Shown here: in pieces, positions 34,915 through 54,283 of the stretch
Layout of the letters: the number at the start of each line of letters is the position of its first letter
Numbering within the stretch: position 1 is the stretch's first letter
Source of the DNA: a virus
Taxonomy: Duplodnaviria; Caudoviricetes
Reading direction: 5' to 3' (one strand)
Virus record (IMG/VR): IMGVR_UViG_3300017747_002036
Coordinates: 1-54,283 of that record
DNA: 54,283 nucleotides
The notes under the pieces: generated by a model
The model's input: the letters and a program-made list of their open reading frames with translations, nothing else
What the model was told of the DNA's origin: nothing
The model's database searches: none
Translations under genes and position numbers: made by a program

Positions 34915-36192
34915 ATGGCAGCAATTCCAGCAATCGACGCTAATATTTGCTCTGGATGGACAGAGCAGAATATTAACTTGTTCAACAAACTCGACTTCTA
35001 TCTCGCCGCTCTTCAAGCTAAGAAGCGTAAGACGTGGATGGGGTGGAGTAAGTTCTGTGGTAAGGTTAAGTGGCAAGCCAACATGGGCGCAACCATGAAG
35101 GGTGTTCGCAAAGAACCTTCTCCTAACTTGCGGCAGTTCGCATTTCCTACAGTGTTGAGTGGTATCCCTAAGAAAGATATCATTGACATTCGAGAAATGA
35201 CTGTTACTACTCAAGTTTCTCGTCATCGTTTCGAGTCTCCAGTTCTTAACTTCTTGCCTGACTTCCAAGACTTCATGACTAATCATGTGTCTGCTCTTGG
35301 TGAAGACATTGAAGAGAAGAAGCTCCGCTACGAAGATATTTTCATTCGTGGTAACATCTTCCACAACTCTCCTAATGTGTGGATTCCTAATCGTGCAGCT
35401 GGCGAAATGGTAATCGCACCTATGGGTGATGGTAACCAAGCTGGAACTAGCGGTAAGACTACTGCTTGGTTGTCTGCTATCTTGCCTGAGATTGGTCAGC
35501 CGGGATACTTGGGTCTGCAATCTATTAACAAGTTGGTTACTGCACTTGAAGTTGACCTTCGTGTTCCTGCATTCAAGGGTTCTGGCCAACCTACAGATGA
35601 TGTTGGATTGAACGATATGTATTGTCTCGTTCTGTCTGCGGAAGCGTGGAATCAATTCACGTTTGACCCGTGGGTATTGGCTAACAAGAAACTCGACTTC
35701 GATGTTGTGAACCAATCTTTCCGTGGTTCTCTGTTCGGTCGTGTTACTTGCAAGCTGGAAGATATGCCGCTTCGTATTGCTGCGGATGGCACGTTCCCAG
35801 CTCCTGAGATTCGTGTTAGTGGTGGTGATGCTTACAACGAAGGTGAATCTGTTGTTAATCCTGACTATCAAGATGCGCAATATGAAGTTGCGTTCTTGAT
35901 TGGCACGGAAGGTTACAAGTCACTGGAAGTTGGGCCGCCTCCTACGGCATTCACGAACGGTGGTTACAATGACAAGTTCCGTAAGATGACTTGGAATGGT
36001 GAACTCATGCTCACTAAGGACTTCCTTATTGAGTGCGTGGATGATGACGGTAATGTTCGCTACGAGCAGAACTCTTATGGTGAATACCTCAAGTTCCAAT
36101 CTCAGTTGGCGCTTGGTATCATTGGTCAACAGAAACGTAATATCGTTCCTATCATCTTTAAGCGGACCCGCGGTGCTGTGGTTCCTGCTTAA
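34915..36192 (+). CDS. Major capsid protein (putative)
   Basis: 425 aa after the scaffold gene, with a dedicated promoter; position and size typical of HK97-fold capsid proteins. Confidence 0.8.
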   Translation: MAAIPAIDANICSGWTEQNINLFNKLDFYLAALQAKKRKTWMGWSKFCGKVKWQANMGATMKGVRKEPSPNLRQFAFPTVLSGIPKKDIIDIREMTVTTQVSRHRFESPVLNFLPDFQDFMTNHVSALGEDIEEKKLRYEDIFIRGNIFHNSPNVWIPNRAAGEMVIAPMGDGNQAGTSGKTTAWLSAILPEIGQPGYLGLQSINKLVTALEVDLRVPAFKGSGQPTDDVGLNDMYCLVLSAEAWNQFTFDPWVLANKKLDFDVVNQSFRGSLFGRVTCKLEDMPLRIAADGTFPAPEIRVSGGDAYNEGESVVNPDYQDAQYEVAFLIGTEGYKSLEVGPPPTAFTNGGYNDKFRKMTWNGELMLTKDFLIECVDDDGNVRYEQNSYGEYLKFQSQLALGIIGQQKRNIVPIIFKRTRGAVVPA

Positions 36193-36238: not shown

Positions 36239-36769
36239 ATGAAAACAAACTTCTTCTCTAATTTCTGCAAAGTGATGCTTGCAGGATGCGTAGTGGCAAT
36301 GGCTGCCTTGGCCCCTTATAAGGCTGAGGCAGCTTCCATTTCCGCTAACTACACCTCACTCAGCACTAACTCTCTGCTTACTGTTCCTGTAACGGTTAGC
36401 ACGATTCAAGTTAGTGCTAGTTCCTCGAACGCAGCTACTGTAATCTTCTACGATACTGCTTACGGTAGTAACGTATATGCAGTTGCCGCTAATGTAACTC
36501 GTAGTAACTACGTTACTAATGCTGTTAGCACGTATGTTACCACGACTGGCGTGACGAACTACCTTACTAACACTGTGTTGTATACTGCGCTGGTGACTAA
36601 CTCTGCTAATGCAAACACTCCGCTGCCAGCAGCTGCTACGTTTACAGTTCCAGCTGGGCTTACAACTACGTTCCCTGTTGAACTTGTGTTCAGCCGAGGC
36701 GTCCTTGTTAAGGCTAACACTAACGTAACAGTGAATGTTACATACCAAACTGGCCCAAGTGCTCCGTAA
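36239..36769 (+). CDS. Signal-peptide-bearing T/N-rich beta protein; candidate capsid decoration protein (start likely MKTNFF)
   Basis: MKTNFFSNFCKVMLAGCVVAMAALAPYKAEA|AS; lies directly after the capsid gene. Confidence 0.7.
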   Translation: MKTNFFSNFCKVMLAGCVVAMAALAPYKAEAASISANYTSLSTNSLLTVPVTVSTIQVSASSSNAATVIFYDTAYGSNVYAVAANVTRSNYVTNAVSTYVTTTGVTNYLTNTVLYTALVTNSANANTPLPAAATFTVPAGLTTTFPVELVFSRGVLVKANTNVTVNVTYQTGPSAP

Positions 36770-36782
36770 GTAGTTAAATATT

Positions 36783-36930
36783 GAGCTTGTTGTTTACTTC
36801 TCCACTGTGTCGGTCAGTTGCTAGTGTGCTCGCAAAGCTAAACCCGGCAAGGAGATTAAGACACAACAAATTAAGTCCACTTAGTGACGTGTTCAGCTAG
36901 GTGAGATTTAACAGAAGTAACAACAAGCTC
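36783..36930 (+). ncRNA. Multi-branched intergenic RNA structure
   Basis: 18-bp closing stem gagcttgttgtttacttct/agaagtaacaacaagctc enclosing gtgtc/gacac and cacttag/ctaggtg stems. Confidence 0.6.
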
Positions 36931-36971
36931 CCATTTAATTATTTAGGTCAACAAAACTTTACCATAACATT

Positions 36972-37325
36972 ATGTCAACTCCCGGTAATCCTCCAATTCC
37001 TCGTATTCCTTACAGTGCTCCTGCTAGGAGTATCGCAGATGTGAATGAAATCATAGCTGCTATCTCTGATAGGATAGTAAACGCTAACGCCATGAACTTA
37101 GGTGTTAACGGTGCAGTAGGTTGTGGGCCGGCAGATGTGGTAACTGGAAACTTCTTTGCACTACAAGCAATTGGTGACACTGTTATTGGAACATTGACTG
37201 CAGTTGGAGATAGTGGAGACGTTCTTACTGGAGTTACTTTACCGTCTGGTATGGTTGTGTATGGTAACTTTACTGCTGTAACTGTCACTAGTGGTTATAT
37301 TCGTGCTTACAAGAAGCAAGCTTAA
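36972..37325 (+). CDS. Small beta-rich virion protein
   Basis: GNFFALQA...GVTLPSGMVVYGNFTAVTVTSG; in the structural module. Confidence 0.7.
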   Translation: MSTPGNPPIPRIPYSAPARSIADVNEIIAAISDRIVNANAMNLGVNGAVGCGPADVVTGNFFALQAIGDTVIGTLTAVGDSGDVLTGVTLPSGMVVYGNFTAVTVTSGYIRAYKKQA

Positions 37326-37353
37326 TTTGAAGTTGGTCTGTTTATGAACTATT

Positions 37354-37512
37354 ATGTTAACTCTTGGCATAGGACTGGGAATACATAAGCAAGATGCAAC
37401 AGTAGGCCAAGGTGGCGGTGGCGGAGGGGAAGTCTATAACATAATTACAGAAGATGACATTAACATAATCACAGAAAGTGGCGATGAAATCATTCGGGAG
37501 GATGCGCCATGA
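37354..37512 (+). CDS. 52-aa virion adaptor-like peptide (not in the ORF track)
   Basis: MLTLGIGLGIHKQDATVGQGGGGGGEVYNIITEDDINIITESGDEIIREDAP; ATGA overlap with the next gene. Confidence 0.75.
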   Translation: MLTLGIGLGIHKQDATVGQGGGGGGEVYNIITEDDINIITESGDEIIREDAP

Positions 37513-37862
37513 TGTGTTTGAACTTAGGGTTAGGAATACAAAAATCAGATAATTCTGTATATAGTTCTGGTCCTCCTCCAGAAAATAGCATTACGTTATC
37601 AGCAGCAGAACTTTATATACCTGTAACGGAAGCGCGGCCAGCTAGAGCGACACTAGACTTTGTAAGATTAGTAGATACAGTTGTAGCATTGTCTACTGAT
37701 AATCCCGCAGCAGAAATTATAACTCCGCAAACAATATTAGCTGGAGATTTATTTGTAGAATTTTTTGTAGCTAATCCGGGTGGTCCAGCAGGAAATGCAG
37801 TTCTTAGTGGAACGTCAGATTTAGTAGTCAACAACACTTTAACTTTTGAATTAGGTGAATAA
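37509..37862 (+). CDS. Small virion protein with an Ig-like C-terminus
   Basis: N-terminus CLNLGLGIQKSD resembles the preceding peptide; beta-strand pattern. Confidence 0.65.
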   Translation: MMCLNLGLGIQKSDNSVYSSGPPPENSITLSAAELYIPVTEARPARATLDFVRLVDTVVALSTDNPAAEIITPQTILAGDLFVEFFVANPGGPAGNAVLSGTSDLVVNNTLTFELGE

Positions 37863-38571
37863 ACAAAACATTATCAAATATGGGTTAGTTGCTATCTTGG
37901 GGTTGCTGTCTGTGGCGGCAACAATTAAGATTAGTGACATGACTTCTGCTACCACTGTTGGTAATGCAGACCTGTTTACGCTTGTGCAAGGTGGAGCGAA
38001 TAAGAAAGTTACGCAAGCGACACTTCTTACTAACATCTTCGCTAATGTCACAGCAGGCAGTAACGTAACTGTTACTAATCAAGGAACTAACATTATTATT
38101 GCAGCTACAAGTGGTAGTAGTGGTAATACAGCTTATGCTCAAGCAATAACTGTTAGTGATACTACTAACAGAACTACAACTTCTGCTGCATTTACTAACA
38201 CTTTCGTGCAAGCTGTTTTCACAAACAACTTGGCCAGCACGAACAGCGCGGTGGAGATAACTGTTTCAGGCTATGCGGGTGGCTCGGTGGTTTCTGGCGT
38301 TCTGTTCACCATATTCGCGTGGGATGGAGCAACGGAAACAGACATCAAACCTGCTGCTGTTAATGCGCTTGGCGGTGTTCTGATAAACAGTTCGGCATCA
38401 CTGGAACCATTCAGCTTTACCTTCGTCCATACCAACATAACCAGCACCACCCCGCTTACATATCGGCTCGCATGGAATGTGAACTCAGGCACAGCCAACA
38501 TTGGACGTCGTAATTCCGATACGTTCTTTGACTTGCCAACTAATATTACTTTAAGGGAGAAAATTCGATGA
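37855..38571 (+). CDS. Fibre-like protein with an N-terminal signal peptide
   Basis: MNKQNIIKYGLVAILGLLSVAA|TIKISDMTSATT..ADLFTLVQGGANKKVT; T/N-rich; gp53-like C-terminal beta domain. Confidence 0.75.
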   Translation: MNKQNIIKYGLVAILGLLSVAATIKISDMTSATTVGNADLFTLVQGGANKKVTQATLLTNIFANVTAGSNVTVTNQGTNIIIAATSGSSGNTAYAQAITVSDTTNRTTTSAAFTNTFVQAVFTNNLASTNSAVEITVSGYAGGSVVSGVLFTIFAWDGATETDIKPAAVNALGGVLINSSASLEPFSFTFVHTNITSTTPLTYRLAWNVNSGTANIGRRNSDTFFDLPTNITLREKIR

Positions 38572-38987
38572 AAGACTTTCTAAGAACAGTAATGGTTTAT
38601 GCAGAACGTAATGGTTGCGTTGCTCAACCTCTAGATGACATATCTAGTTTTAATTGGAGTGGGCCGCTTCCTAAGCCTACTATTGCGCAGTTGGAAGAAT
38701 TTGAATCGACTGTGTTGGATGAAGAAGCACGAATAGAAGGTATTAAGAACAAAGCTTCTACACTTATTTTGACTCGCTATCCTATTTGGAAACAGAACAA
38801 TCTCCATATGAGGTTTACTGAGTTAGTCGATAAAGCACAATCTGGCCAAGAACTAACTCCAGAAGAGCAGTTGGAGAAAGAAGCTAGCCGTGCAGTCTGG
38901 ACTTGGGTAAAGCTAGTTCGTGTAGAATCTGACCGCCTAGAAGGAATTGCTGGAGCAACTGCTAATGATGGTAATTGGCCAGCATAA
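38568..38987 (+). CDS. Tail-fibre assembly/chaperone-like protein
   Basis: ATGA overlap with the fibre gene; PKPTIAQL and ILTRYPIWKQNN motifs. Confidence 0.55.
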   Translation: MKDFLRTVMVYAERNGCVAQPLDDISSFNWSGPLPKPTIAQLEEFESTVLDEEARIEGIKNKASTLILTRYPIWKQNNLHMRFTELVDKAQSGQELTPEEQLEKEASRAVWTWVKLVRVESDRLEGIAGATANDGNWPA

Positions 38988-39006
38988 CATAAAGGAAGGA
39001 ACTATT

Positions 39007-39366
39007 ATGGCCAAGGAACAAACTCAACAACATACTACAGAAGAGTCTATTTGGGAGAAGAGATTCGAGTCAATCTGTAAGTTAGTAGAAAGTCAGGCTA
39101 ATCAACAAGAACGAATCCTATCTTGCTTGGAAGGAGATGCGCTAGCAGGTAAGAAAGGACTCGTTCATTTAGTTGATGATTTGAACAATACGCAAATGCT
39201 TACCAGGAAGCAAGTTGAAGAACATGCTGCTAAGATTAAGATACATGACGACGAGATAGCTGAAAGTAAGTCACAGAGAAAGACTCTGATAACTGTCCTT
39301 TCATTAGGGAGCGGCGGCGTTGGAGCGATGCTATCTAAGTTCTTCGGGAATAGTGGAAGTAATTAA
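39007..39366 (+). CDS. Coiled-coil protein with a C-terminal membrane segment (lysis-associated)
   Basis: Start MAKEQ at 39007; ends in LITVLSLGSGGVGAML. Confidence 0.55.
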   Translation: MAKEQTQQHTTEESIWEKRFESICKLVESQANQQERILSCLEGDALAGKKGLVHLVDDLNNTQMLTRKQVEEHAAKIKIHDDEIAESKSQRKTLITVLSLGSGGVGAMLSKFFGNSGSN

Positions 39367-39407
39367 TTAAGATTTCGGTAAACAACAAACAAGAAGAAAG
39401 AACACGT

Positions 39408-39632
39408 ATGAAGAAAAGTTGGAAAACAACGGCTGGCGGTATCAGTGCAATCTTGGCAGCTATTGCTGGTGCCGCGAATCTGATGCTGGATAATAACCCT
39501 GCGACTAATCCTGATTGGTCTGTAGTTATCGCAGCGGTAACAACTGGCTTCGGCCTCATCTTCGCCCGTGACAACAACGTATCCAGTGAAGAAGCTGGAG
39601 CAGCGAAGACCGAAGTTAACATTACAAAGTAA
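39408..39632 (+). CDS. Holin (putative, two TM segments)
   Basis: MKKSWKTTAGGISAILAAIAGAANLML...WSVVIAAVTTGFGLIFARD. Confidence 0.7.
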   Translation: MKKSWKTTAGGISAILAAIAGAANLMLDNNPATNPDWSVVIAAVTTGFGLIFARDNNVSSEEAGAAKTEVNITK

Positions 39633-39658
39633 CTAGGAAAGGAGGTTGATTCTTATCT

Positions 39659-39901
39659 ATGCTAACAGCTGCCGCTCTCACTGCAATCATTGGGTTTGCC
39701 ATTTGGTTGGTGAAGCGGTGGCTGTTATCATCTGATGAGAAGAATCAGTCTCAGGCCGCCCAAGAAGCTAAAGGTCAGCAAGAGATAAGGAAAGTAATCG
39801 CTAAGGAACACAATGAAGAAGAACTTAATTCTTTGCTTGATAGTAAGTTGCGGTCTATTGACAGGTTGCGCAACGAGGCGGGAACTGATAATCATTCCTG
39901 A
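39659..39901 (+). CDS. Inner-membrane spanin (Rz-like)
   Basis: N-terminal TM segment plus helical periplasmic part; overlaps the lipoprotein gene. Confidence 0.65.
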   Translation: MLTAAALTAIIGFAIWLVKRWLLSSDEKNQSQAAQEAKGQQEIRKVIAKEHNEEELNSLLDSKLRSIDRLRNEAGTDNHS

Positions 39902-40037
39902 TACTGGTAAAGTAACTCAATTAGAGAATGGCGATTACTTAGTTCCGAAAGCGCGGATGCTAGAGATACTTGATACTTTGAACGCTTACGAAGCAATGTT
40001 GGCAGAACAGTCTAGGAATAGAAACAAATCAAAATAA
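39813..40037 (+). CDS. Outer-membrane lipoprotein spanin (Rz1-like)
   Basis: Signal peptide with lipobox LTG|C, overlapping the Rz-like gene in another frame. Confidence 0.72.
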   Translation: MKKNLILCLIVSCGLLTGCATRRELIIIPDTGKVTQLENGDYLVPKARMLEILDTLNAYEAMLAEQSRNRNKSK

Positions 40038-41305
40038 TGAGCTTCACTCCTTACAACATTCAAGATTGGTTGCGTAGAACTGCTGCTGTTCCAGTTCGTC
40101 GCAGGAGCACATACATTGAGATTCCTGCTTTTAACTACACTGACCTTGAATGGATTGGAGCAAGTGAATGTGTAGCTCAGTTTAATTTTTCAGCTAGCAA
40201 TAAGTTTACGCTGATTACGCTGCCCACTAAGCCAACAGACGCTAATTTTGGCCTTTGTATTCGTTATAGGATTGGAGATGAAGTATTTCGCTTTAAGCTC
40301 TGGGACGACGAAGCTTTCAAGCTTACTGGTGACGTTCCAGTCTATACAAACGAAATCATTCGTGCTAATTTCGTTATTGAAGTGTGGTCTTACGAGAATG
40401 AAACGACTGCACTTAACGAGGAAGCACTTCGCACAATTACGTCTGTTAGAGTTCTACCTACAGATGTAAGTCAGTTAGGTGTTAACGCTGCTTTGGCTGT
40501 TGGGGCGGAGTTTAGGGCATTGGCAAATACTAATACTACTCCTACTTCTCCGACGTCTACTGGTCGTATGGGATGGTTTAGGCCAGATGATTATGGTATC
40601 ATTGTAAATGGTCCTACTGCTACGCCGGGAGCATTAACCAATGCAGATGCTAGCGGGAATATGACAGACTTGAATGATACTGGTATTGGAGTAAGTATCT
40701 ACGCAGGAGCAAATGCACTAAATGGACATGCTTGGTTGCGATTTAACGGTTCTACAGCTTACATGGATTCTGCTTATGCTGGCGGTGTTCAAGCTGGAGA
40801 TAGGACATTTGTTGGTGTGATGCGTATCTATGCAGGGAGTATAGATTTAGATGGTTGGATAGTTGCAGATTACGATAACACACTGATGACTGCTGATAAA
40901 CTTGCTCATTTCAGTGACACAGAAGTGTATCTCATTAAGCAAGATGGAACTACAGGAGATAAGTTAACGCTAACAGATGATGAGTGGGTTGTATTCTACA
41001 TGACTATCTCTAGGAGCACTAACACAGTAATCCTGCACATAGAGGGACTTGGTGACGTTGAGATAGATAGTAGCATTGGTGACGTGCTTGCATCTTCCAC
41101 TGAGATGTATCTTGGCAATGACCCAACAGCAATTGGTGCGAATGCAGGGAAGTTCGACTTAGCTGAACTACTTGTATTCAACTCTGTTCTCTCTGCGGCA
41201 GACTTAACAACTAACATGCAGTATCTCTCTGAGAAGTTCTTTGAAGGCATTTCTCTTCCTCTCACATTTAACGAAGGTGGTCCGTGGCTCGATAACGATA
41301 ACTAA
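40037..41305 (+). CDS. Tail/receptor-binding protein with a concanavalin/LamG-like domain
   Basis: GWFRPD...LNGHAWLRFNGS...FDLAELLVFNSVLS...YLSEKF. Confidence 0.7.
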   Translation: MSFTPYNIQDWLRRTAAVPVRRRSTYIEIPAFNYTDLEWIGASECVAQFNFSASNKFTLITLPTKPTDANFGLCIRYRIGDEVFRFKLWDDEAFKLTGDVPVYTNEIIRANFVIEVWSYENETTALNEEALRTITSVRVLPTDVSQLGVNAALAVGAEFRALANTNTTPTSPTSTGRMGWFRPDDYGIIVNGPTATPGALTNADASGNMTDLNDTGIGVSIYAGANALNGHAWLRFNGSTAYMDSAYAGGVQAGDRTFVGVMRIYAGSIDLDGWIVADYDNTLMTADKLAHFSDTEVYLIKQDGTTGDKLTLTDDEWVVFYMTISRSTNTVILHIEGLGDVEIDSSIGDVLASSTEMYLGNDPTAIGANAGKFDLAELLVFNSVLSAADLTTNMQYLSEKFFEGISLPLTFNEGGPWLDNDN

Positions 41306-41316
41306 ACTACTCTAAC

Positions 41317-42426
41317 ATGAAAAAACTCCGTAATATTGTATTCTCTTTTGTCTGTCTCTTAGCCGCATATTCGCTGTATGCTGCGAATGACCCTGACCTC
41401 AGTAAAGGCTTAGACCTGACTAGCAGAACTACCGTAACTGCGTCGCAACTTAATCAGTTAGTTGACGCTGGAACACTTCGCACAAATCGCGCCGCGCTAC
41501 TTCTAACTAACGCTGCACCTAACGTTGTAGCAAATCCACGATACACGAATTGGATTTGGCTCGATCAGAGTTCTATCCCATTCGTTCTTAAAGCTTGGAA
41601 CGCTAACTCTAACGCGTGGATTGCAGTAAGCTTTGGCACTAATGCAATCACTACTGCACAGATAGGAGACGGCCAAGTTACAACTGTCAAGATTGCCAAT
41701 GGTGCAGTTACCACTGACAAACTCGGTGACAATTCTGTAACGGAAGCTAAGATTGTGGCTGGGCAAGTTTCTGCTAGTAAGATGGCTAATAATGCTATTA
41801 CTACACTGTCTATTACGAATGGTGCAGTTACAACCGAGAAGTTGGCAGTTAATTCAGTAAACACTACTAATGTAGTAGATGGTTCTATTACTTCTAATAA
41901 GATTGCTGCTGCTACTATCACTTCTGACAAGTTTGCGCCGGGAGCTATTGGTGCTGCTTCTATTGAAGATAATAGTATCACTGGTATTAAGATTGTAACG
42001 GGTGCAATTGGAACTACTAACATTGCAAATAGCGCAGTTACTACTAACAAGATTTCGTTTGGAATGTGGCTTTCTACTAACCAAACAGTTGCTATTCCTG
42101 CGGCTGCTGCTACTGCAACATTGACTCACACATTTCCTGCTCAACCACAAAGTGTTAACGTAGTGTTGGTTTGCACTTCGGCAGATTTGGGTTATTCTGT
42201 TGGAGATGAGATTCATATTCTTAGTGCTATCAACAATGCCGGTGCAGATGATTATCCTATGATTACGTATTCTGTTACTGCTGCTGGAATTACGTTTACG
42301 CGTGGGTCAACGTCTACAGCTACGTCCAACTTCATCAACAGGAAAGACACTGGAGTTCCTGATGATATTGTTACGACTAGCTGGAACATTAAATACTACG
42401 CTACGTATTTCCCTACGCCTAACTAA
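41317..42426 (+). CDS. Tail-fibre-like repeat protein with an N-terminal signal peptide
   Basis: MKKLRNIVFSFVCLLAAYSLYA|AN; about 14 ten-residue (A/S)(V/I)TxxK(I/L) repeats; C-terminal LVC..ADLGYSVGDEI domain. Confidence 0.8.
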   Translation: MKKLRNIVFSFVCLLAAYSLYAANDPDLSKGLDLTSRTTVTASQLNQLVDAGTLRTNRAALLLTNAAPNVVANPRYTNWIWLDQSSIPFVLKAWNANSNAWIAVSFGTNAITTAQIGDGQVTTVKIANGAVTTDKLGDNSVTEAKIVAGQVSASKMANNAITTLSITNGAVTTEKLAVNSVNTTNVVDGSITSNKIAAATITSDKFAPGAIGAASIEDNSITGIKIVTGAIGTTNIANSAVTTNKISFGMWLSTNQTVAIPAAAATATLTHTFPAQPQSVNVVLVCTSADLGYSVGDEIHILSAINNAGADDYPMITYSVTAAGITFTRGSTSTATSNFINRKDTGVPDDIVTTSWNIKYYATYFPTPN

Positions 42427-42435
42427 TTAATAATC

Positions 42436-43437
42436 ATGTCACTTCGTAACATACTACAAAAAGTAGCTACTAAGACTGGGGCTGATTTAACAAATCAGGA
42501 ACAGTTGGACTACTTGATTCAGGAAGTCAATGATACAGCTAAAGACGTATATGTAGCTAACGACTTCCCGAATTCACTAATAGAGCAACGCTACTATATG
42601 ACGGATGACACTGAACTAGTTCGTCTAGTTCTTCCGGCTGAAGTAGGTAAGTTACGGGCAGTTAGGTATTCTGACCTCGTAACTGGCAACATAACTCTTG
42701 TAGATATGCGGCCACGTTACTATACTGGTAACAACTGGATAGATAACAGGAACTTCCTAAAGTTTGAAGTGCAGAGTGATAATGCACCAATCAAACGAGA
42801 GATTGAGAATGCATCAAGAATTACATTCACTCTCAAGAAAGTCGAAACACAAGATGTAATTATCACTGTTGCTGGACGCACAGATTTCTCCCAGTCTTTC
42901 TCTGAGGACGTTACTATTCCAGCTGGCTCTCTGTCAGCTACTACAGTCAACAATTACGAAGATATCGTATCGTTTACTAAGAACGTAATCACTGATTCTG
43001 ACGTTCTAATTACTGACATTGACGATAACGAGATAGCTGAGATAATGAATTATGCAGCTGAGTCTCGTTACGTTTTAGTGCAAGTTTCTACTCGCCTTCT
43101 GACAGAAGTCTATTTGCAACCGGGATATACTCGCACTCTTGAAGTCCTTTATAAGAAGAAGTTCCGTCCGATGCAGAAACTAACTGATGAGTTTATGTGT
43201 CCTGATTGCGACAACATAATTGCAACTGCGTATCTAGCAGAATATGCAGCGCAGCAAGAAGGACAAGAACAACGTGCAATCCTCGCTGCTAACAGAGCGC
43301 AACAACAAGCTTCTGACTTAGCCTTCGATGATGAACAGGGCCGCCAGATGAAGCTAGAAGGGATGCAGTCTAGCGGTCTAGCAGGCTTCCAGCGAGTGCG
43401 TAACTCACGTCGTGGTTATGGTAGACGCTACTGCTAA
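42436..43437 (+). CDS. Head-tail adaptor / tail tubular protein A-like
   Basis: MSLRNILQKVA...LIQEVNDTAK helical start; position before the nozzle-like gene. Confidence 0.6.
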   Translation: MSLRNILQKVATKTGADLTNQEQLDYLIQEVNDTAKDVYVANDFPNSLIEQRYYMTDDTELVRLVLPAEVGKLRAVRYSDLVTGNITLVDMRPRYYTGNNWIDNRNFLKFEVQSDNAPIKREIENASRITFTLKKVETQDVIITVAGRTDFSQSFSEDVTIPAGSLSATTVNNYEDIVSFTKNVITDSDVLITDIDDNEIAEIMNYAAESRYVLVQVSTRLLTEVYLQPGYTRTLEVLYKKKFRPMQKLTDEFMCPDCDNIIATAYLAEYAAQQEGQEQRAILAANRAQQQASDLAFDDEQGRQMKLEGMQSSGLAGFQRVRNSRRGYGRRYC

Positions 43438-48505: not shown

Positions 48506-51500
48506 ATGGCAGACGCTAATTATCGCCGTCAACTTCTGTTAGAAGCTGGCCTTGACCCATCTCAAGTCGCACTTGATGACCAAGGTTTCGTGATTGCTGC
48601 TCCAGAGCCGCCTCAATCCCCTGTAGTTAATCAGGCAACTTCACTACAGCCGCTAACTCCTAAGCCACTTGGAAGTGCAGTTAGGCAGTTCGGTGCAGGT
48701 GTGCTTCCTGCTGCTGGCGGCCTACTTGCAGGTAGTCTGGCGGCTGCTCCATTCACAGGAGGAACATCTCTACTTCTACCTATTGGCGCTGGTATAGCGG
48801 GTGCTCTTGCGGGTGGTTATGGGGCAGCTAAGTTGCAAGAGAAAGTAATGCCTGAAGAATGGAATCAGCAACTAGCTCTTGACGCTGAGGTTAATCCCAA
48901 GGCGTCGATGCTGGGTAATGTAGCTTCATCGTTAGTGTTCATGAAGCCAGACTTGAAGTCTGTTGCGAATGCTGGACAAGGAATTAGGAATCTAGTTACT
49001 GGCGGAGCAAGTAAACTCTCTGGTCCACAAGCGGGTAATCTGCTAAACATCGGACTTGGTGGCGGACTGGGTGCTGCTAGTTCTATCTACGAAGACGTTT
49101 CGCGTGACAAAGAAATAGATTTTGGTAAGCTTGCAATTAGTGCAATTGGTAATGCACTAATTAATAATCCAAATAAGCTTGGTCAAAAGCTTGGAGCTAC
49201 GCCTAACGTATACGATGATATTGGCGAGACACAAGCTAGGCAGATGATGCAGGCAGACCAAACTACGCTTGGCGAAGAGTCACTTCAACTTCGTAATAAG
49301 GCTGACAGAGAACGTGCGGCGGCAGCTGAAGCAAGAGACAAAGAGATATTTGATGAGTTGCCTGCTAGTCTTAAGAAGAAAGTCTCTTCTAAGTCTATGT
49401 CTCTGCAAGATGCAATCATAGTTGCGCGTGAAGAGGAAGGAATTGCACAACGTAAAGCACAGGCTGCTGCTGGCAAACTACAGACTCCTTCTACTCTGGA
49501 GGACATTAAAGGATTCGGTGCACAAGAGCGTGGATACGAAGAGATGTATTCGCAATATGGCCGCGACGTATTGTCTCAAGAGCCTACTCCTAAGCTGAAG
49601 TTGGCTGAGACACAGCGTGTAGTTGAGAATCAGTTAGCGGAAAAGGCGAATGAAGTAGAACTCCAGAAGTTCGTAACTGAAAGTAAGAAGCTAGACTTTG
49701 AGAAAGCTAGACTAGAGAAGGAAGCACAGGATTTGGAAGAGATGCAGAGAGTTGCAAGCGCGCCGAAACCTGCGTCTGAGAACGCTCTTAAATACCTAGA
49801 GAGCGGAATAGTGAATCGTAGGTTGGCTGGAGAAGAAGTTCGTCCTACGGTAAGTGAGAGCGATTTGTTGCCGAGTAGGGCGGCGATGAGTGAAGATGCA
49901 GATTTGCTTGCTCCCCAGACGGAAGCAGAGAGGATTCAGGAAGACTTTGACTTAGGTAAGAGGAAGCAAGAAGGTGAACAAGCTATAAGAAAGCAGACTA
50001 CTACTCCTGAGTTTAAGAAGTGGTTTACTGGAAGTAAAGTTGTAGATGAAAAAGGTGAGCCGCTAGTAGCTTATCATGGTAACTCTGCTGACTTTAATTC
50101 TTTTGACAAAGATGTTGCAGGTGATGTAGGTTTTTATTTTACTAAAAATACAGGAGAAGCCTCTGAGTATAGCAGGTTTAATGGAGAAGGTTCTAATGTA
50201 AAACCTGTGTTCTTAAATATTAAGAATCCTGTTCCACAAGATGTATATAATGAAGTAGCTAGAATTTATGGTAAAGGCGGTAATCCGCGTAAAGCTATAA
50301 ATCAGAGATTGCGCTTAATGGGTTATGATGGAAGAATCATAGGTGATCACTATGTTGTATTCGAACCCACGCAAATTAAGTCTGCAACAGGTAATAAAGG
50401 AACTTTCGATTCTACCAATTCAGATATTAGGTATCAAGACTCTACTGTCCTCTCTGACGAACAACGTCGTGTAATCCAAGACGCTAAGGCTGAAGTAACT
50501 AAGAAGATGAAGGATGCAGGTATCTCTACTGAACCAACAGTTGGTTTTAGAGACGCTATGCAATTGCTAGCTGCTAAGCGTAAAGTTAAGTTAGAGCTGG
50601 ACCCAGCTGTAGAAGGAGCAGGTGAAACTGTTTCTGTAGCAGAACAGAAGAAACTTCGTGGTGCATTGGAAGATGTTACTGCCAAGATTAACCCACAGAT
50701 TGCAGGCATGGATACTTGGCCGCATGAGATGTTCCATGTTTTCTTTACTGACATGGAAATAGGTAAGAGTCAAATTGGGAGAGACTTAGCTAAGAAGGCG
50801 AAGGAAGTGTTTGGAGGAAGTGAAGAAGTGCTTACTGACGTAACTGGGAAAGAAGTAATTACTCGTTTACTAAATCTAGATAAGGAAGGCAAGACTAAGA
50901 AGTTCTTTAAGGATTTCTGGTCGTTTGTTAAGACTAAGTATGGTAATCCTACAACGGGAGATGTTAAGAGGCTGATGGCAAATAGACTACTTAACGAGGT
51001 CTCCTACAGCGAACTTAATCCTTCTGCCGTGGCAGGGAAAGTAGGAGTAGAGCTGACGCAAGAGGAGTCAACTGGCGAGCCAGCACTAGCACAGCGTGAA
51101 GGCCAACAGTTGCCTAAGGAGAATGTTACTTCAGAGGTAGCGAAGGGCAAACTGTCGGAGATGAAGAAGACTCTGGGGATGGAAGAAGGGAAGAATAAGG
51201 TGGACCAGAAGGACTTGAAAGCAGCTAAGTTTGCAGGTAGACAGCAGGAAGGCGATGCAACACTGAAAGATGATAGGACGTTCGCAACTGATTTCGAGAA
51301 GCAATTCAAGTCAGTCAGCACTCCATATAATTTACGTTCTAACAAAGAAGGTAAATTTACTTCTAGCGAAGTGGTGCAGTCACTGAGTAAAATCAATCCC
51401 GGAGAAGCTCAATTACTTAAGGATGCGGGGATTGAAGGTTATCTGAAAGCTAATCCCAAAGTTAGCGCAGAGGAACTTACGAAGTGGATTAAGGAGAATG

Positions 51501-54283
51501 GTCCGAAGGTTGAAGTGTTAGAGTATGGACAGAGTGGGAAGGTTAGTAAGGCAAAGGAAGAGTATGATAAGATGACTCACACTTGGTATGATAACCTTCC
51601 AGCTAAAGAAAGAAGCTATGTTGGAGATGAGTTAGGTAAGCATCATTTAGCATGGATTGGCCAAGCTCAAATGGATGAAGCTAAAACTATTGTTGCCAAG
51701 TTGCTCGCTACACCAGAAGGTAAACGCTATAAAGAACTGTCTGAAATAGTCGCTAAAGAACCAAAGGATGGCGGCCCTCGCGCAACCTCGACTTACAACT
51801 ACGTATCTCCTAAAGACCCCAAGAAGTTTCCTGTGCAGAGAGTTGATGTGGTGTTGCCTACGAAATTACGTAAGGGTGCCACAGAAGATAAACTCAATAA
51901 TAGAATTATTGATGAAGAAGGTGTTCCTCGTTACGAAGATTCTAAATATTACGATAAGCTTAAAGGTGTTCTATGGCAACCCGACAACCTCCACGAAAAC
52001 GTGCCTAACACTCTAGGTTGGGCAGCGATACAGTATGAGACGCTTCCTAGTGGCGAGAAAGTAGCTCACATATTTGAGTTGCAGAGTAGGTGGGGGCAGA
52101 AAGTAAGAGAAGAAAAAGCAACATATAAAGACAATCCAGAGTTCTATAAGAACCTACCTGATAGTATTGACCACCCCCTCCTCAAAGACTACAACCGCCT
52201 AATCCTTAAGGCCGCTATAGACGAAGCTCGTAAGCGTGGAGCTACGAAGATTGCGATTAGCGATGCAGAGACGGCGATGATTACGGAGGGGCATGATATG
52301 CACCCTGAAACTATCGACATCATTGACCATTTACCTAATCGTAAAGCTGGTGAAGCAGCACTCAAGCGTTATCAAGAGCGTAATCCAGATAAACGCTATA
52401 CGCTAGAGAAGTCTGACATGAGTTCTGAATGGGTTATTCGTGAAGTAGAAGCTCGCCCTGTGCAAGAAGGCGGTATGCGCTTCAACTATGACGAAGCCCT
52501 TCCTCGCATTGCAGAAGAACTAACTGGAAGTAAGGGAGAGAGTGTGGAGTTTGGGGAGCATAAGAATGCTGTTGAATATGTAAGCCCTACTACAGGTCGT
52601 TCGATGGGAACTGCTACAGGTGGAGATTTGGTTAAGAAGAATCGCGACAACCTAATCTTCAAGAATCCTGATGGCACTCCTAAGACTTCTATCACTGCTC
52701 GTATGTATGACATTGGTATGACCTCTATGCGTCGTGCTAGTGGTGAACCTTTCAGTATGTTTGGTAAGAGGTATCAGTCAGAGTCTGACGCGCTCCCTCG
52801 CCAGCAAGCTGACACGCAACAGTCTTATGAAAGAGAAACTCCTGCCGGCCGCATTAAGGTAGACATAGCTGAGAAGCAACCTCTGAAATTAGCGTTCCTT
52901 GACTTTATGCTTGGGCAGAGTGATAAAGTTAAGAAGGTTGATGCCGAACTTGGTGATGCGTTCGAGAAGTTCTTCCTACGTCGTAGCTATCTAGAAGGCA
53001 AGTATGCTAACACTATCCAAGACGTAGCAGTAAAGTATAAGCCAGAAGTTCGTGACAGAGTTAGCAAGTATATGATGGCACTTGATGCAGATAAGCCTGC
53101 TCCGTATACGCTGAAAGGAGATGAAGTAACTCTGCATAAAGAAATTCAGAACTACTTGAAGAATGTTCGCGCAGACCAGAACGAACTTGGTATCCTAGTT
53201 TCTGGAGTTCGTGAAGGTAAGTTCAATGAGAACTACTTCCCTAACATGATGGGCCGCGATGTAGTTAATACACTAGTGAATAAAGGTGATTCGCAAGAGG
53301 CCGCCACTTATCGTAAAGCATGGCGCGAACACATTACTACAGCGTCGCAAGGTAAGGTTACTAGTAAGGAAGCGAACGAGATTATCAATAATTACATTCG
53401 GGCGATTGGTAGTAAGAAACTATCTGGCCAGATGGAGTTTGGTGCAGTTCGGAAAGCAGAAGGTTATGGTCTGCCTCCTGAGATGCAAGAGAAAGACTTG
53501 CTAGCACGTCTAACAAGGTATGGCAAGAGAGTAGCTAAGGACTTCGCTTACTTCCAAGAGTTGCAGAGTAAAGAGAACGTAGCTGCAAAACTTGGTCTAC
53601 ATGACCAGAAGGGTAAGCTGATTACGAAAGAAGGAGTAGAGAGTGCGAAGTCCTCTAACGAAGAAGTAATCAAAGCTATCAAGATGGTGGATGACGACTA
53701 CGACTACTACCACCCAGTCACAAACGCGTTCAACAGACTAGTGACTAACTCACTGTTGGGTCCGCTGTCGGGCGCACGTGACATTGCAACTATTCCGGTT
53801 AACGTTATACCTTACATTAACAAACTCGAAGACTTCGGCGCATTCGTAAAAGCTATTCCTAAATTGGGACAAGCTTGGAAGAAGTCTTTGCAAGCTGGTG
53901 CGCGTAGAGAGAACTTGGATTCTCTGTTGTATGGTGACTCTGGGAATTCTGGCAACTACGTAGTTGACAAGATGAATCAACTAGCTCAAGGCTTGCGTGT
54001 AGTGCAGGGCAGAGAGTTTCTGGAACAGGGAGCACGGACCTATTCTTATGCTATCGGAGAGGAACTAACTAAAGCTAACATCCTCCGAGCTGCTGCTGGA
54101 GATAAGTCTTCTCAAGAGTGGGTGAAAAAGTTCGGTAAGATTGTAGACGGGAATGAGATGAAGTCTGCGAAGGATTTCAGAAGTCTGTCACAAGAAGATG
54201 TGATGAAGATAACGAAGTCATTTGTAGACCAAGTGCAGGGTAGTTACGATGGCCGCAACTTACCTCTTGGTATCATGGAAGGC
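48506..54283 (+). CDS. Giant polyvalent ejection protein (about 2,240 aa with 1..1068) containing ADP-ribosyltransferase and zincin metallopeptidase domains
   Basis: ATG at 48506 (MADANYRRQLLLEAG); no stop in the parts I translated, and the track lists no closed ORF in this frame; ART-PolyVal-like block at 50003-50437; HEMFH at 50723-50737. Confidence 0.9.
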   Translation, partial: MADANYRRQLLLEAGLDPSQVALDDQGFVIAAPEPPQSPVVNQATSLQPLTPKPLGSAVRQFGAGVLPAAGGLLAGSLAAAPFTGGTSLLLPIGAGIAGALAGGYGAAKLQEKVMPEEWNQQLALDAEVNPKASMLGNVASSLVFMKPDLKSVANAGQGIRNLVTGGASKLSGPQAGNLLNIGLGGGLGAASSIYEDVSRDKEIDFGKLAISAIGNALINNPNKLGQKLGATPNVYDDIGETQARQMMQADQTTLGEESLQLRNKADRERAAAAEARDKEIFDELPASLKKKVSSKSMSLQDAIIVAREEEGIAQRKAQAAAGKLQTPSTLEDIKGFGAQERGYEEMYSQYGRDVLSQEPTPKLKLAETQRVVENQLAEKANEVELQKFVTESKKLDFEKARLEKEAQDLEEMQRVASAPKPASENALKYLESGIVNRRLAGEEVRPTVSESDLLPSRAAMSEDADLLAPQTEAERIQEDFDLGKRKQEGEQAIRKQTTTPEFKKWFTGSKVVDEKGEPLVAYHGNSADFNSFDKDVAGDVGFYFTKNTGEASEYSRFNGEGSNVKPVFLNIKNPVPQDVYNEVARIYGKGGNPRKAINQRLRLMGYDGRIIGDHYVVFEPTQIKSATGNKGTFDSTNSDIRYQDSTVLSDEQRRVIQDAKAEVTKKMKDAGISTEPTVGFRDAMQLLAAKRKVKLELDPAVEGAGETVSVAEQKKLRGALEDVTAKINPQIAGMDTWPHEMFHVFFTDMEIGKSQIGRDLAKKAKEVFGGSEEVLTDVTGKEVITRLLNLDKEGKTKKFFKDFWSFVKTKYGNPTTGDVKRLMANRLLNEVSYSELNPSAVAGKVGVELTQEESTGEPALAQREGQQLPKENVTSEVAKGKLSEMKKTLGMEEGKNKVDQKDLKAAKFAGRQQEGDATLKDDRTFATDFEKQFKSVSTPYNLRSNKEGKFTSSEVVQSLSKINPGEAQLLKDAGIEGYLKANPKVSAEELTKWIKENGPKVEVLEYGQSGKVSKAKEEYDKMTHTWYDNLPAKERSYVGDELGKHHLAWIGQAQMDEAKTIVAKLLATPEGKRYKELSEIVAKEPKDGGPRATSTYNYVSPKDPKKFPVQRVDVVLPTKLRKGATEDKLNNRIIDEEGVPRYEDSKYYDKLKGVLWQPDNLHENVPNTLGWAAIQYETLPSGEKVAHIFELQSRWGQKVREEKATYKDNPEFYKNLPDSIDHPLLKDYNRLILKAAIDEARKRGATKIAISDAETAMITEGHDMHPETIDIIDHLPNRKAGEAALKRYQERNPDKRYTLEKSDMSSEWVIREVEARPVQEGGMRFNYDEALPRIAEELTGSKGESVEFGEHKNAVEYVSPTTGRSMGTATGGDLVKKNRDNLIFKNPDGTPKTSITARMYDIGMTSMRRASGEPFSMFGKRYQSESDALPRQQADTQQSYERETPAGRIKVDIAEKQPLKLAFLDFMLGQSDKVKKVDAELGDAFEKFFLRRSYLEGKYANTIQDVAVKYKPEVRDRVSKYMMALDADKPAPYTLKGDEVTLHKEIQNYLKNVRADQNELGILVSGVREGKFNENYFPNMMGRDVVNTLVNKGDSQEAATYRKAWREHITTASQGKVTSKEANEIINNYIRAIGSKKLSGQMEFGAVRKAEGYGLPPEMQEKDLLARLTRYGKRVAKDFAYFQELQSKENVAAKLGLHDQKGKLITKEGVESAKSSNEEVIKAIKMVDDDYDYYHPVTNAFNRLVTNSLLGPLSGARDIATIPVNVIPYINKLEDFGAFVKAIPKLGQAWKKSLQAGARRENLDSLLYGDSGNSGNYVVDKMNQLAQGLRVVQGREFLEQGARTYSYAIGEELTKANILRAAAGDKSSQEWVKKFGKIVDGNEMKSAKDFRSLSQEDVMKITKSFVDQVQGSYDGRNLPLGIMEG
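54161..54283. repeat. Terminal overlap, copy 2
   Basis: Identical to 1-123. Confidence 0.97.

Follow-up and report, generated by a model that had tools for sequence, protein, structure and literature searches.

The DNA analysed here (the window) is the whole of virus record IMGVR_UViG_3300017747_002036, a complete sequence of 54,283 bp with direct terminal repeats, from an uncultured short-tailed phage of the Caudoviricetes. Three of its late genes, designated A (36239-36769), B (37855-38571) and C (41317-42426), encode proteins of 176, 238 and 369 amino acids whose N-terminal segments are, by composition and by comparison with homologues, genuine and conserved signal peptides of the Sec type. 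These genes, like the other late features described below, lie on the plus strand. Export of the three proteins from the cytoplasm is well supported by this pattern; cleavage of the signals would place the mature proteins in the periplasm. B and C resemble receptor-binding fibres, and in each of them the predicted signal stands directly before a conserved N-terminal module. The reading that we favour, tentatively, is that these fibres mature in the periplasm and dock on the phage particles at lysis.

The first-pass annotation of the window had noticed a basic, hydrophobic and small-residue signal peptide at each of the three starts, and the N-termini are as it described. Each opens with a basic stretch, continues with 14-16 hydrophobic residues and ends in a small-x-small site. 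A has an n-region of 11 residues (net charge +2), an uncharged run at residues 12-27 and a predicted cut after residue 31 (AEA|A). The n-region of B comprises 8 residues (net +2), the uncharged run extends from residue 9 to 24 and the cut is predicted after residue 22 (VAA|T). For C, the corresponding values are 6 residues (net +3), residues 7-23 and a cut after residue 22 (LYA|A). The predicted signal peptides of 31, 22 and 22 amino acids are encoded by 36239-36331, 37855-37920 and 41317-41382, respectively. The uncharged runs comprise 16-17 residues including the c-region, which is the length of a signal peptide and not of a transmembrane anchor, and the best 10-residue Kyte-Doolittle means were 2.59 for A, 2.87 for B and 2.96 for C. 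Small residues occupy positions -1 and -3 in A (A-E-A|A) and B (V-A-A|T), and C (L-Y-A|A) has the less usual Leu at -3. Signal peptidase II recognises a lipobox, [LVI][ASTVI][GAS]C, at the end of the h-region. No lipobox was found in B or C. A lipobox-like LAGC at residues 14-17 of A is preceded by only 5 hydrophobic residues, the hydrophobic run continues beyond it, and its Cys is missing in most family members.

Signals were called with a crude heuristic of our own, combined with comparative evidence. A crude set of 77 open reading frames (ORFs) of the window, in which A was listed from a longer upstream start, contained four positives, namely B, C, a holin-like gene at 39408 and a lipoprotein gene at 39813. 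Gene A passed the heuristic when read from 36239. All five genes, and a further gene at 39659 for a protein with a transmembrane domain (TMD), lie within 36.2-42.4 kb. In homologues the signal pattern was kept while its sequence drifted, being present in 141 of 149 homologues of A, 5 of 6 of B and 10 of 10 of C. The comparison of N-termini with those of homologues, which had been proposed as a check, thus came out in favour of the signals.

Gene A follows directly on a probable major capsid gene (34915-36192). Related uncultured loci were taken from viral, metagenome and genome collections by way of this capsid protein, and homologues with 48-60% identity were present in 12 of them. A was the gene directly after the capsid gene in all 12 related loci and in 5 further viral loci, some of which are possibly the same contigs. 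On this synteny, A is a core gene of the phage clade, always located beside the capsid gene. A profile search gave 405 representative homologues of A at E<=1e-3. A signal was called by the heuristic in 141 of the best 149 of these 405, and the 8 failures look truncated or borderline. All five close homologues kept the signal despite change in its sequence, and in loci L018, L025 and L039 it begins not at the start of the longest ORF but at an internal Met.

The AlphaFold2 (AF2) model of A (predicted local distance difference test score, pLDDT, 83.8) consisted of a detached N-terminal helix at residues 5-22 and then an all-beta sandwich, the helix being lower in confidence than the sandwich. 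When the model was compared with the PDB by Foldseek, no match was obtained at E<=1e-3, and hence no solved decoration protein. The comparison with BFVD gave only unnamed proteins of 90-125 residues from uncultured phages, and scores of 0.89 in the ESM Atlas serve as a lead only. A was not assigned to any Pfam, PHROG or NCBIfam family, a weak FixG_C match being below the cut-off. The earlier description of A as decoration-like has the position after the capsid gene as its sole basis, and was not upheld by the structure comparison.

The GTG start of gene B at 37855 shares bases with the stop codon of the ORF before it, an arrangement common for coupling. The signal is followed by a conserved N-terminal module (amino acids 23-84, 37921-38106) and by a variable C-terminal domain (38107-38568). 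In 15 of 15 other viral loci carrying this module, it was located at the extreme N-terminus, 2-5 residues after the initiator Met, with an in-frame stop no more than 7 codons upstream of the start. The claim that cleavage of B would expose a module known from the extreme N-terminus of phage proteins is borne out by these loci. In five of six relatives of B itself, the segment upstream of the module is open, started by Met and basic then hydrophobic; the sixth was called from an inner Met. Approximately half of the residues of the signal segment differ among these relatives, and the module is ~80-90% identical. The upstream segment is coding, since it stays open and signal-like in the relatives. 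Initiation at an in-frame GTG at 37912 would yield a protein without the signal, similar to the 15 module proteins; this codon was considered as the sole start of B and rejected, because the upstream segment is conserved in 5/6 relatives.

The C-terminal domain of B is shared by only one relative, P0016 (59% identity); the others have different domains, which are mostly unalignable. B had no Pfam, PHROG or NCBIfam match. PHROG matches among the B-module proteins and their neighbours were weak and mixed, to minor tail, head decoration and virion structural proteins. The view of the module as the N-terminus of phage fibres is therefore only partly backed: a shared N-terminal module with varying C-termini was found, whereas the PHROG annotation is mixed.

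Gene C encodes a tail-fibre-like protein that matched phrog_892 ('tail fiber protein', 1.4e-23) and 11 more PHROGs. Its predicted signal is followed by a conserved N-terminal domain (amino acids 23-108, 41383-41640), a repeat shaft with fibre-family matches (amino acids ~109-250, 41641-42066) and a hypervariable distal domain (42067-42423). Among cultured phages, 111 records matched the shaft, with annotations such as tail fibre or host specificity protein J, and these matches together with phrog_892 support a fibre-like nature for C. In 10/10 close homologues a signal was present that varied in length and sequence, while the junction before NDPDLSKG was fixed. A downstream start is impossible for C: the sequence read beyond 41317 contains no ATG, GTG or TTG. 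In an alignment of the eight closest homologues, the first 30 columns were 38-85% identical, the N-terminal domain and early shaft mostly 80-100% identical, and the tip (the last ~110 residues) mostly 12-48% identical in 30-column windows, the final short window reaching 41-75%. This is, on the alignment, the conservation pattern usual for a receptor-binding protein.

In distant relatives, the orthologue of C is located after the homologue of the gene at 40037 and before the homologues of the genes at 42436 and 43412. The six distant loci that reach C (L017, L019, L021, L024, L028 and L037) all encode it without a signal: even the longest ORF extends only 2-8 residues ahead of the conserved N-terminal motif, leaving no room for a signal upstream. 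The N-terminal domains of the signal-bearing C proteins align with those of the signal-less orthologues, with seven invariant columns over 16 sequences. As the signal is absent in 6/6 distant orthologues, C gained it within the subclade of the window. Removal of the signal from C would recreate the ancestral free N-terminus, and the same arrangement is seen in B with a different module.

A lysis-like cassette (39408-40037) is located between the capsid gene and the conserved downstream genes. It comprises a holin-like protein of 74 amino acids with two hydrophobic segments at residues 12-26 and 38-53 (39408-39632), the putative function of which is unaccompanied by a family match; an i-spanin-like protein of 80 amino acids with a TMD at residues 1-19 and a charged, helical remainder (39659-39901); and an o-spanin-like lipoprotein of 74 amino acids with the lipobox LTGC (39813-40037), which starts inside the preceding gene in another frame. 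The layout of the latter two genes suggests an overlapped two-component spanin, an assignment drawn from architecture, and neither had a family match. No endolysin was recognised among the ORFs scanned.

The next gene, at 40037-41305, is the signal-less neighbour of C. It corresponds to a protein of ~210-237 amino acids in the relatives, in which the N-terminal domain and the last ~25 residues at the extreme C-terminus are conserved, plus an insertion of ~230 amino acids. A 'LamG' label for this gene was discarded (BLASTP against the LamG protein of L017, E=1.7; no Pfam match). Between the capsid gene and the 40037 homologue, the relatives encode several further fibre-like proteins that carry a signal and are rich in T, N, S and G, together with holin-like proteins and a lipoprotein. 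One of these signal-bearing proteins has a Laminin_G_3 domain (2.7e-19), and another, which occupies the same cassette position in L024 (11948-12631), contains a collagen-like run of G-X-Y.

In the explanation that we favour, A, B and C would be late proteins with cleavable Sec-type signals of the signal peptidase I class, exported to the periplasm of a diderm host. A would be a small beta-sandwich protein exported throughout the clade. B and C would be fibres of the receptor-binding type, each pairing a conserved docking module at the N-terminus with a distal domain that varies, and the signal directly before each docking module would, on removal, restore the free N-terminus of the signal-less relatives. 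The fibres of B and C would fold in the periplasm, the particles in the cytoplasm being still fibre-less at this time. The holin-like and spanin-like genes of the same cassette would then break the inner membrane, allowing the fibres to meet the particles, and the virions would become adsorption-competent at the moment of lysis. We infer the docking on particles, and its timing, from four observations. Two different docking modules have each acquired a signal exactly at the native N-terminus; within the signal-bearing subclade, no part of C is better conserved than its docking domain; C is orthologous to a core, signal-less (cytoplasmic) fibre gene; and the lysis genes are in the same cassette. 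The wider statement, that the clade exports its fibres and a capsid-linked beta-sandwich protein through Sec and arms its particles only at lysis, with the signal as a movable add-on gained by a core fibre gene, is put forward with still more reserve.

Several points weigh against this explanation. To our knowledge, no virion part of a tailed phage is exported, which sets a low prior for assembly after export. The phage has no cultured relative, the cleavage and export of A, B and C are predicted from sequence, and the heuristic behind the signal calls is crude. The gene at 40037 may encode a receptor-binding protein of the virion, or a second one, which would free C for another role. For B, one relative has a Met at the position of the in-frame GTG at -3, and a cytoplasmic isoform of B may be the virion form. 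The B-module proteins elsewhere are not annotated as fibres and have weak, mixed PHROG matches. As regards the particle itself, the adaptor and nozzle identities of the genes at 42436 and 43412 are based on position alone, and the AF2 model of the 43412 protein from a 5-sequence alignment (pLDDT 41.8) was unusable. A shallow full-text literature search found no report of Sec signals on tailed-phage fibres, and passages of PMC3556154 and PMC3426561 do not bear on exported fibres.

The alternative that survives best is that A, B and C are exported and never join the virion, acting instead at the envelope of the infected cell. There they might bind or degrade surface polysaccharide as it is made, or another receptor, and thereby keep phage from adsorbing to the cell or its debris (superinfection exclusion or receptor destruction); or they might aid release through the envelope together with the lysis genes. 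Genuine signals and clustering with the holin-like and spanin-like genes are equally expected of such proteins, and the cassette varies between relatives in a manner typical of accessory genes. The hypervariable tips would also suit a masking protein matched to a receptor, the exported proteins of the relatives carry lectin-like or beta-helix-like domains, and the signal-less 40037 protein could serve as the virion fibre. This role is also favoured by prior knowledge: the phage exclusion proteins T5 Llp and Cor are exported and encoded in tail modules. However, A is a core gene with fixed synteny beside the capsid gene and not a sporadic accessory, C has as its orthologue a core fibre gene without a signal, and the docking N-terminal domain is the best conserved part of C. 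In addition, a Sec signal alone reaches the periplasm and not the cell surface. No C-terminal sorting domain of the type IX secretion system (T9SS) was detected by Pfam and NCBIfam scans in A, B and C, nor in 10 signal-bearing proteins of the relatives, and no other surface-sorting domain was found in these scans of A, B, C and the relatives' signal-bearing proteins. A role at the envelope without virion membership is rated somewhat less likely than docking on the particles.

Two products might also be made from the same gene, an exported, signal-bearing form with an envelope role and a cytoplasmic, signal-less form that builds the virion, through internal initiation or inefficient export. The GTG at 37912 of B would give a start like those of the 15 signal-less module proteins, and the Met in one relative coincides with it. 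Against this, no Shine-Dalgarno-like sequence precedes 37912, and the part of C read beyond its start offers no ATG, GTG or TTG, so that we regard dual products as improbable. The chance that the signals are uncleaved anchors, which would keep the proteins attached to the inner membrane on its outer face as, for example, lysis regulators or assembly scaffolds, appears smaller again. A basic and then hydrophobic N-terminus would insert with the N-terminus inside, but the uncharged runs of 16-17 residues include small-x-small c-regions, the segments vary in length and sequence among homologues around a fixed junction as cleaved signals do, and the helix in the AF2 model of A is detached and of lower confidence than the beta-sandwich. 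Finally, an annotation artefact, with true starts downstream and the hydrophobic stretches untranslated or chance extensions, as the first-pass annotation had allowed for, is very improbable and largely refuted: the GTG start of B overlapping the previous stop and its downstream GTG, which would give a canonical N-terminus, are outweighed by an extension that is open, Met-started and signal-like in 5/6 relatives with about half of its residues differing, by the same finding in 10/10 relatives of C and 141/149 of A, and by the lack of any alternative start in C.

The mature parts of the three proteins had been described as rich in TN, SN and NxT. A, B and C contain 13.8-16.5% T and 8.9-9.7% N, and charged residues account for 5-12% of each, versus ~20-30% in most other ORFs. 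Compared with composition-matched shuffles of the mature parts, TN dipeptides were in excess in A (6 vs 2.9, P=0.046), B (9 vs 3.7, P=0.004) and C (9 vs 4.6, P=0.027). This part of the description is real, with a modest, ~2-fold effect. SN dipeptides were not enriched in mature A, B or C, and NxS/T was at expectation in A (4 vs a shuffle mean of 4.3) and B (6 vs 5.5) but below it in C (2 vs 7.0). The TN pairs of the A family are at conserved motif positions, and the bias may be read there as the composition of beta-structure.

Glycosylation by the host had also been proposed. Bacterial N-glycosylation uses the motif D/E-x-N-x-S/T and O-glycosylation in Bacteroidota uses D[ST][AILVMT]. The former was not present in A, B or C (0, 0 and 0), and the latter occurred once in A, once in B and not in C. 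With NxS/T not enriched and the other motifs at 0-1 per protein, glycosylation of A, B and C is not supported by their sequences.

The spanin-like pair at 39659/39813 suggests a diderm host, to the extent that gene architecture can. A Gln was found after the crudely picked cut in 32 of 147 A-family proteins and in many other signal-bearing proteins of the relatives; this resembles the 'Q-rule' of Bacteroidota. Gln was not found after the cut in A, B or C of the window and was mostly missing in the signals of L017. The clade may span different host groups, since this residue is present in relatives and mostly missing in the window and L017. The sole match on a genome contig, L039, is from a metagenome-assembled genome (MAG) labelled as Alphaproteobacteria. 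Its guanine plus cytosine content changes from ~40% to ~63% at ~12.2 kb, in the middle of the cassette; this suggests a chimeric contig rather than the edge of a prophage, and the label gives no evidence on the host.

Gene orientation in the window is to the minus strand left of ~28 kb, and the late genes, which are strongly divergent, are on the plus strand. No tRNA genes were found in the 54,283-bp record, most of its gene starts are without a Shine-Dalgarno sequence, and the results of a promoter and terminator scan were at or below chance. The putative terminase, portal and capsid genes had no informative Pfam, PHROG or PDB sequence match. For the capsid gene at 34915-36192, searched by sequence, no Pfam, PHROG or PDB match was obtained, and comparison with the ESM Atlas gave template modelling (TM) scores, by query, of 0.62-0.63 to clusters with Phage_capsid_4 or Phage_capsid_3; its designation as major capsid protein is a structural lead. 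PDB sequence and profile searches with the capsid and portal proteins and with those of 43412 and 42436 gave no usable match, the profile searches for the latter two being empty or spurious. No cultured phage was matched by tblastn with the capsid gene, A or the module of B, and a metagenome scan with the single capsid protein gave no DNA of a close relative. Viral scans with C and with the C alignment gave distant shaft matches only.

Two small adjacent ORFs located between A and B, at 37354-37512 and 37509-37862, start with the common motif L-x-L-G-x-G-L-G-I-x-K-x-D. They are paralogue-like or have a common N-terminal module, and neither had a family match. At the right end of the window, a giant ORF of >1926 amino acids (48506-54283) runs past the end of the record, and a frame open at its 5' side at 1-1068 may continue it across the terminal repeat. 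This ORF contains an ART-PolyVal ADP-ribosyltransferase domain (PF18760, 3.5e-25, residues 514-634).

Assembly of tailed-phage virions is generally assumed to take place entirely in the cytoplasm. The conserved signals located exactly before the docking modules of two unrelated fibre genes challenge this view for one uncultured clade, and gene A brings in a further family, located next to the capsid gene and represented by 405 clusters, in which a signal is almost always present. If export and docking at lysis are correct, they would constitute a two-compartment assembly route for the Caudoviricetes and a new checkpoint in assembly, at which particles would not be armed before lysis; docking of the fibres would also call for caution in the use of signal peptides to exclude virion proteins during annotation. 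If the fibres do not dock, they would represent a new class of exported, fibre-derived envelope effectors.

Sec-exported lysis proteins, that is, signal-peptide and signal-anchor-release (SAR) endolysins and spanin lipoproteins, are, like A, B and C, products of late genes that carry an N-terminal Sec signal, and their genes are neighbours of holin and spanin genes. Their site of action is outside the cytoplasm, and a spanin-like pair is present in the A-B-C cassette itself. Unlike them, A, B and C have no features of lytic enzymes or spanins, and B and C are built like receptor-binding fibres. T7 gp17 and the P22 tailspike, which join the particle last, combine a conserved N-terminal part that binds the particle with a shaft and a distal, receptor-binding part that varies. 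B and C resemble them in the conserved N-terminal part and variable tip, and C also in its shaft, but the T7 and P22 fibres are cytoplasmic proteins that lack a signal peptide. Neither B nor C showed a sequence or family link to the T7 or P22 proteins. Late docking is biochemically plausible, given that tailless P22 particles can acquire their tailspikes in vitro.

T5 Llp and Cor of T1- and phi80-like phages are likewise exported and encoded among tail genes, and act on the receptor of their own phage. They are small lipoproteins unrelated to fibres, whereas B and C have no lipobox and are fibre-like, and A is a conserved core gene. A is similar to the decoration proteins lambda gpD, phage L Dec and T4 Hoc and Soc in being small, beta-rich and encoded after the capsid gene; in contrast to these, it has a signal in 141/149 homologues and does not match a solved decoration protein. 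The g8p and g3p proteins of the Inoviridae are virion proteins with Sec signals that are assembled outside the cytoplasm, as is proposed here for B and C. Inoviridae virions are extruded at the membrane without lysis, whereas the window represents a tailed phage with a lead to an HK97-type capsid and with a lysis-like cassette.

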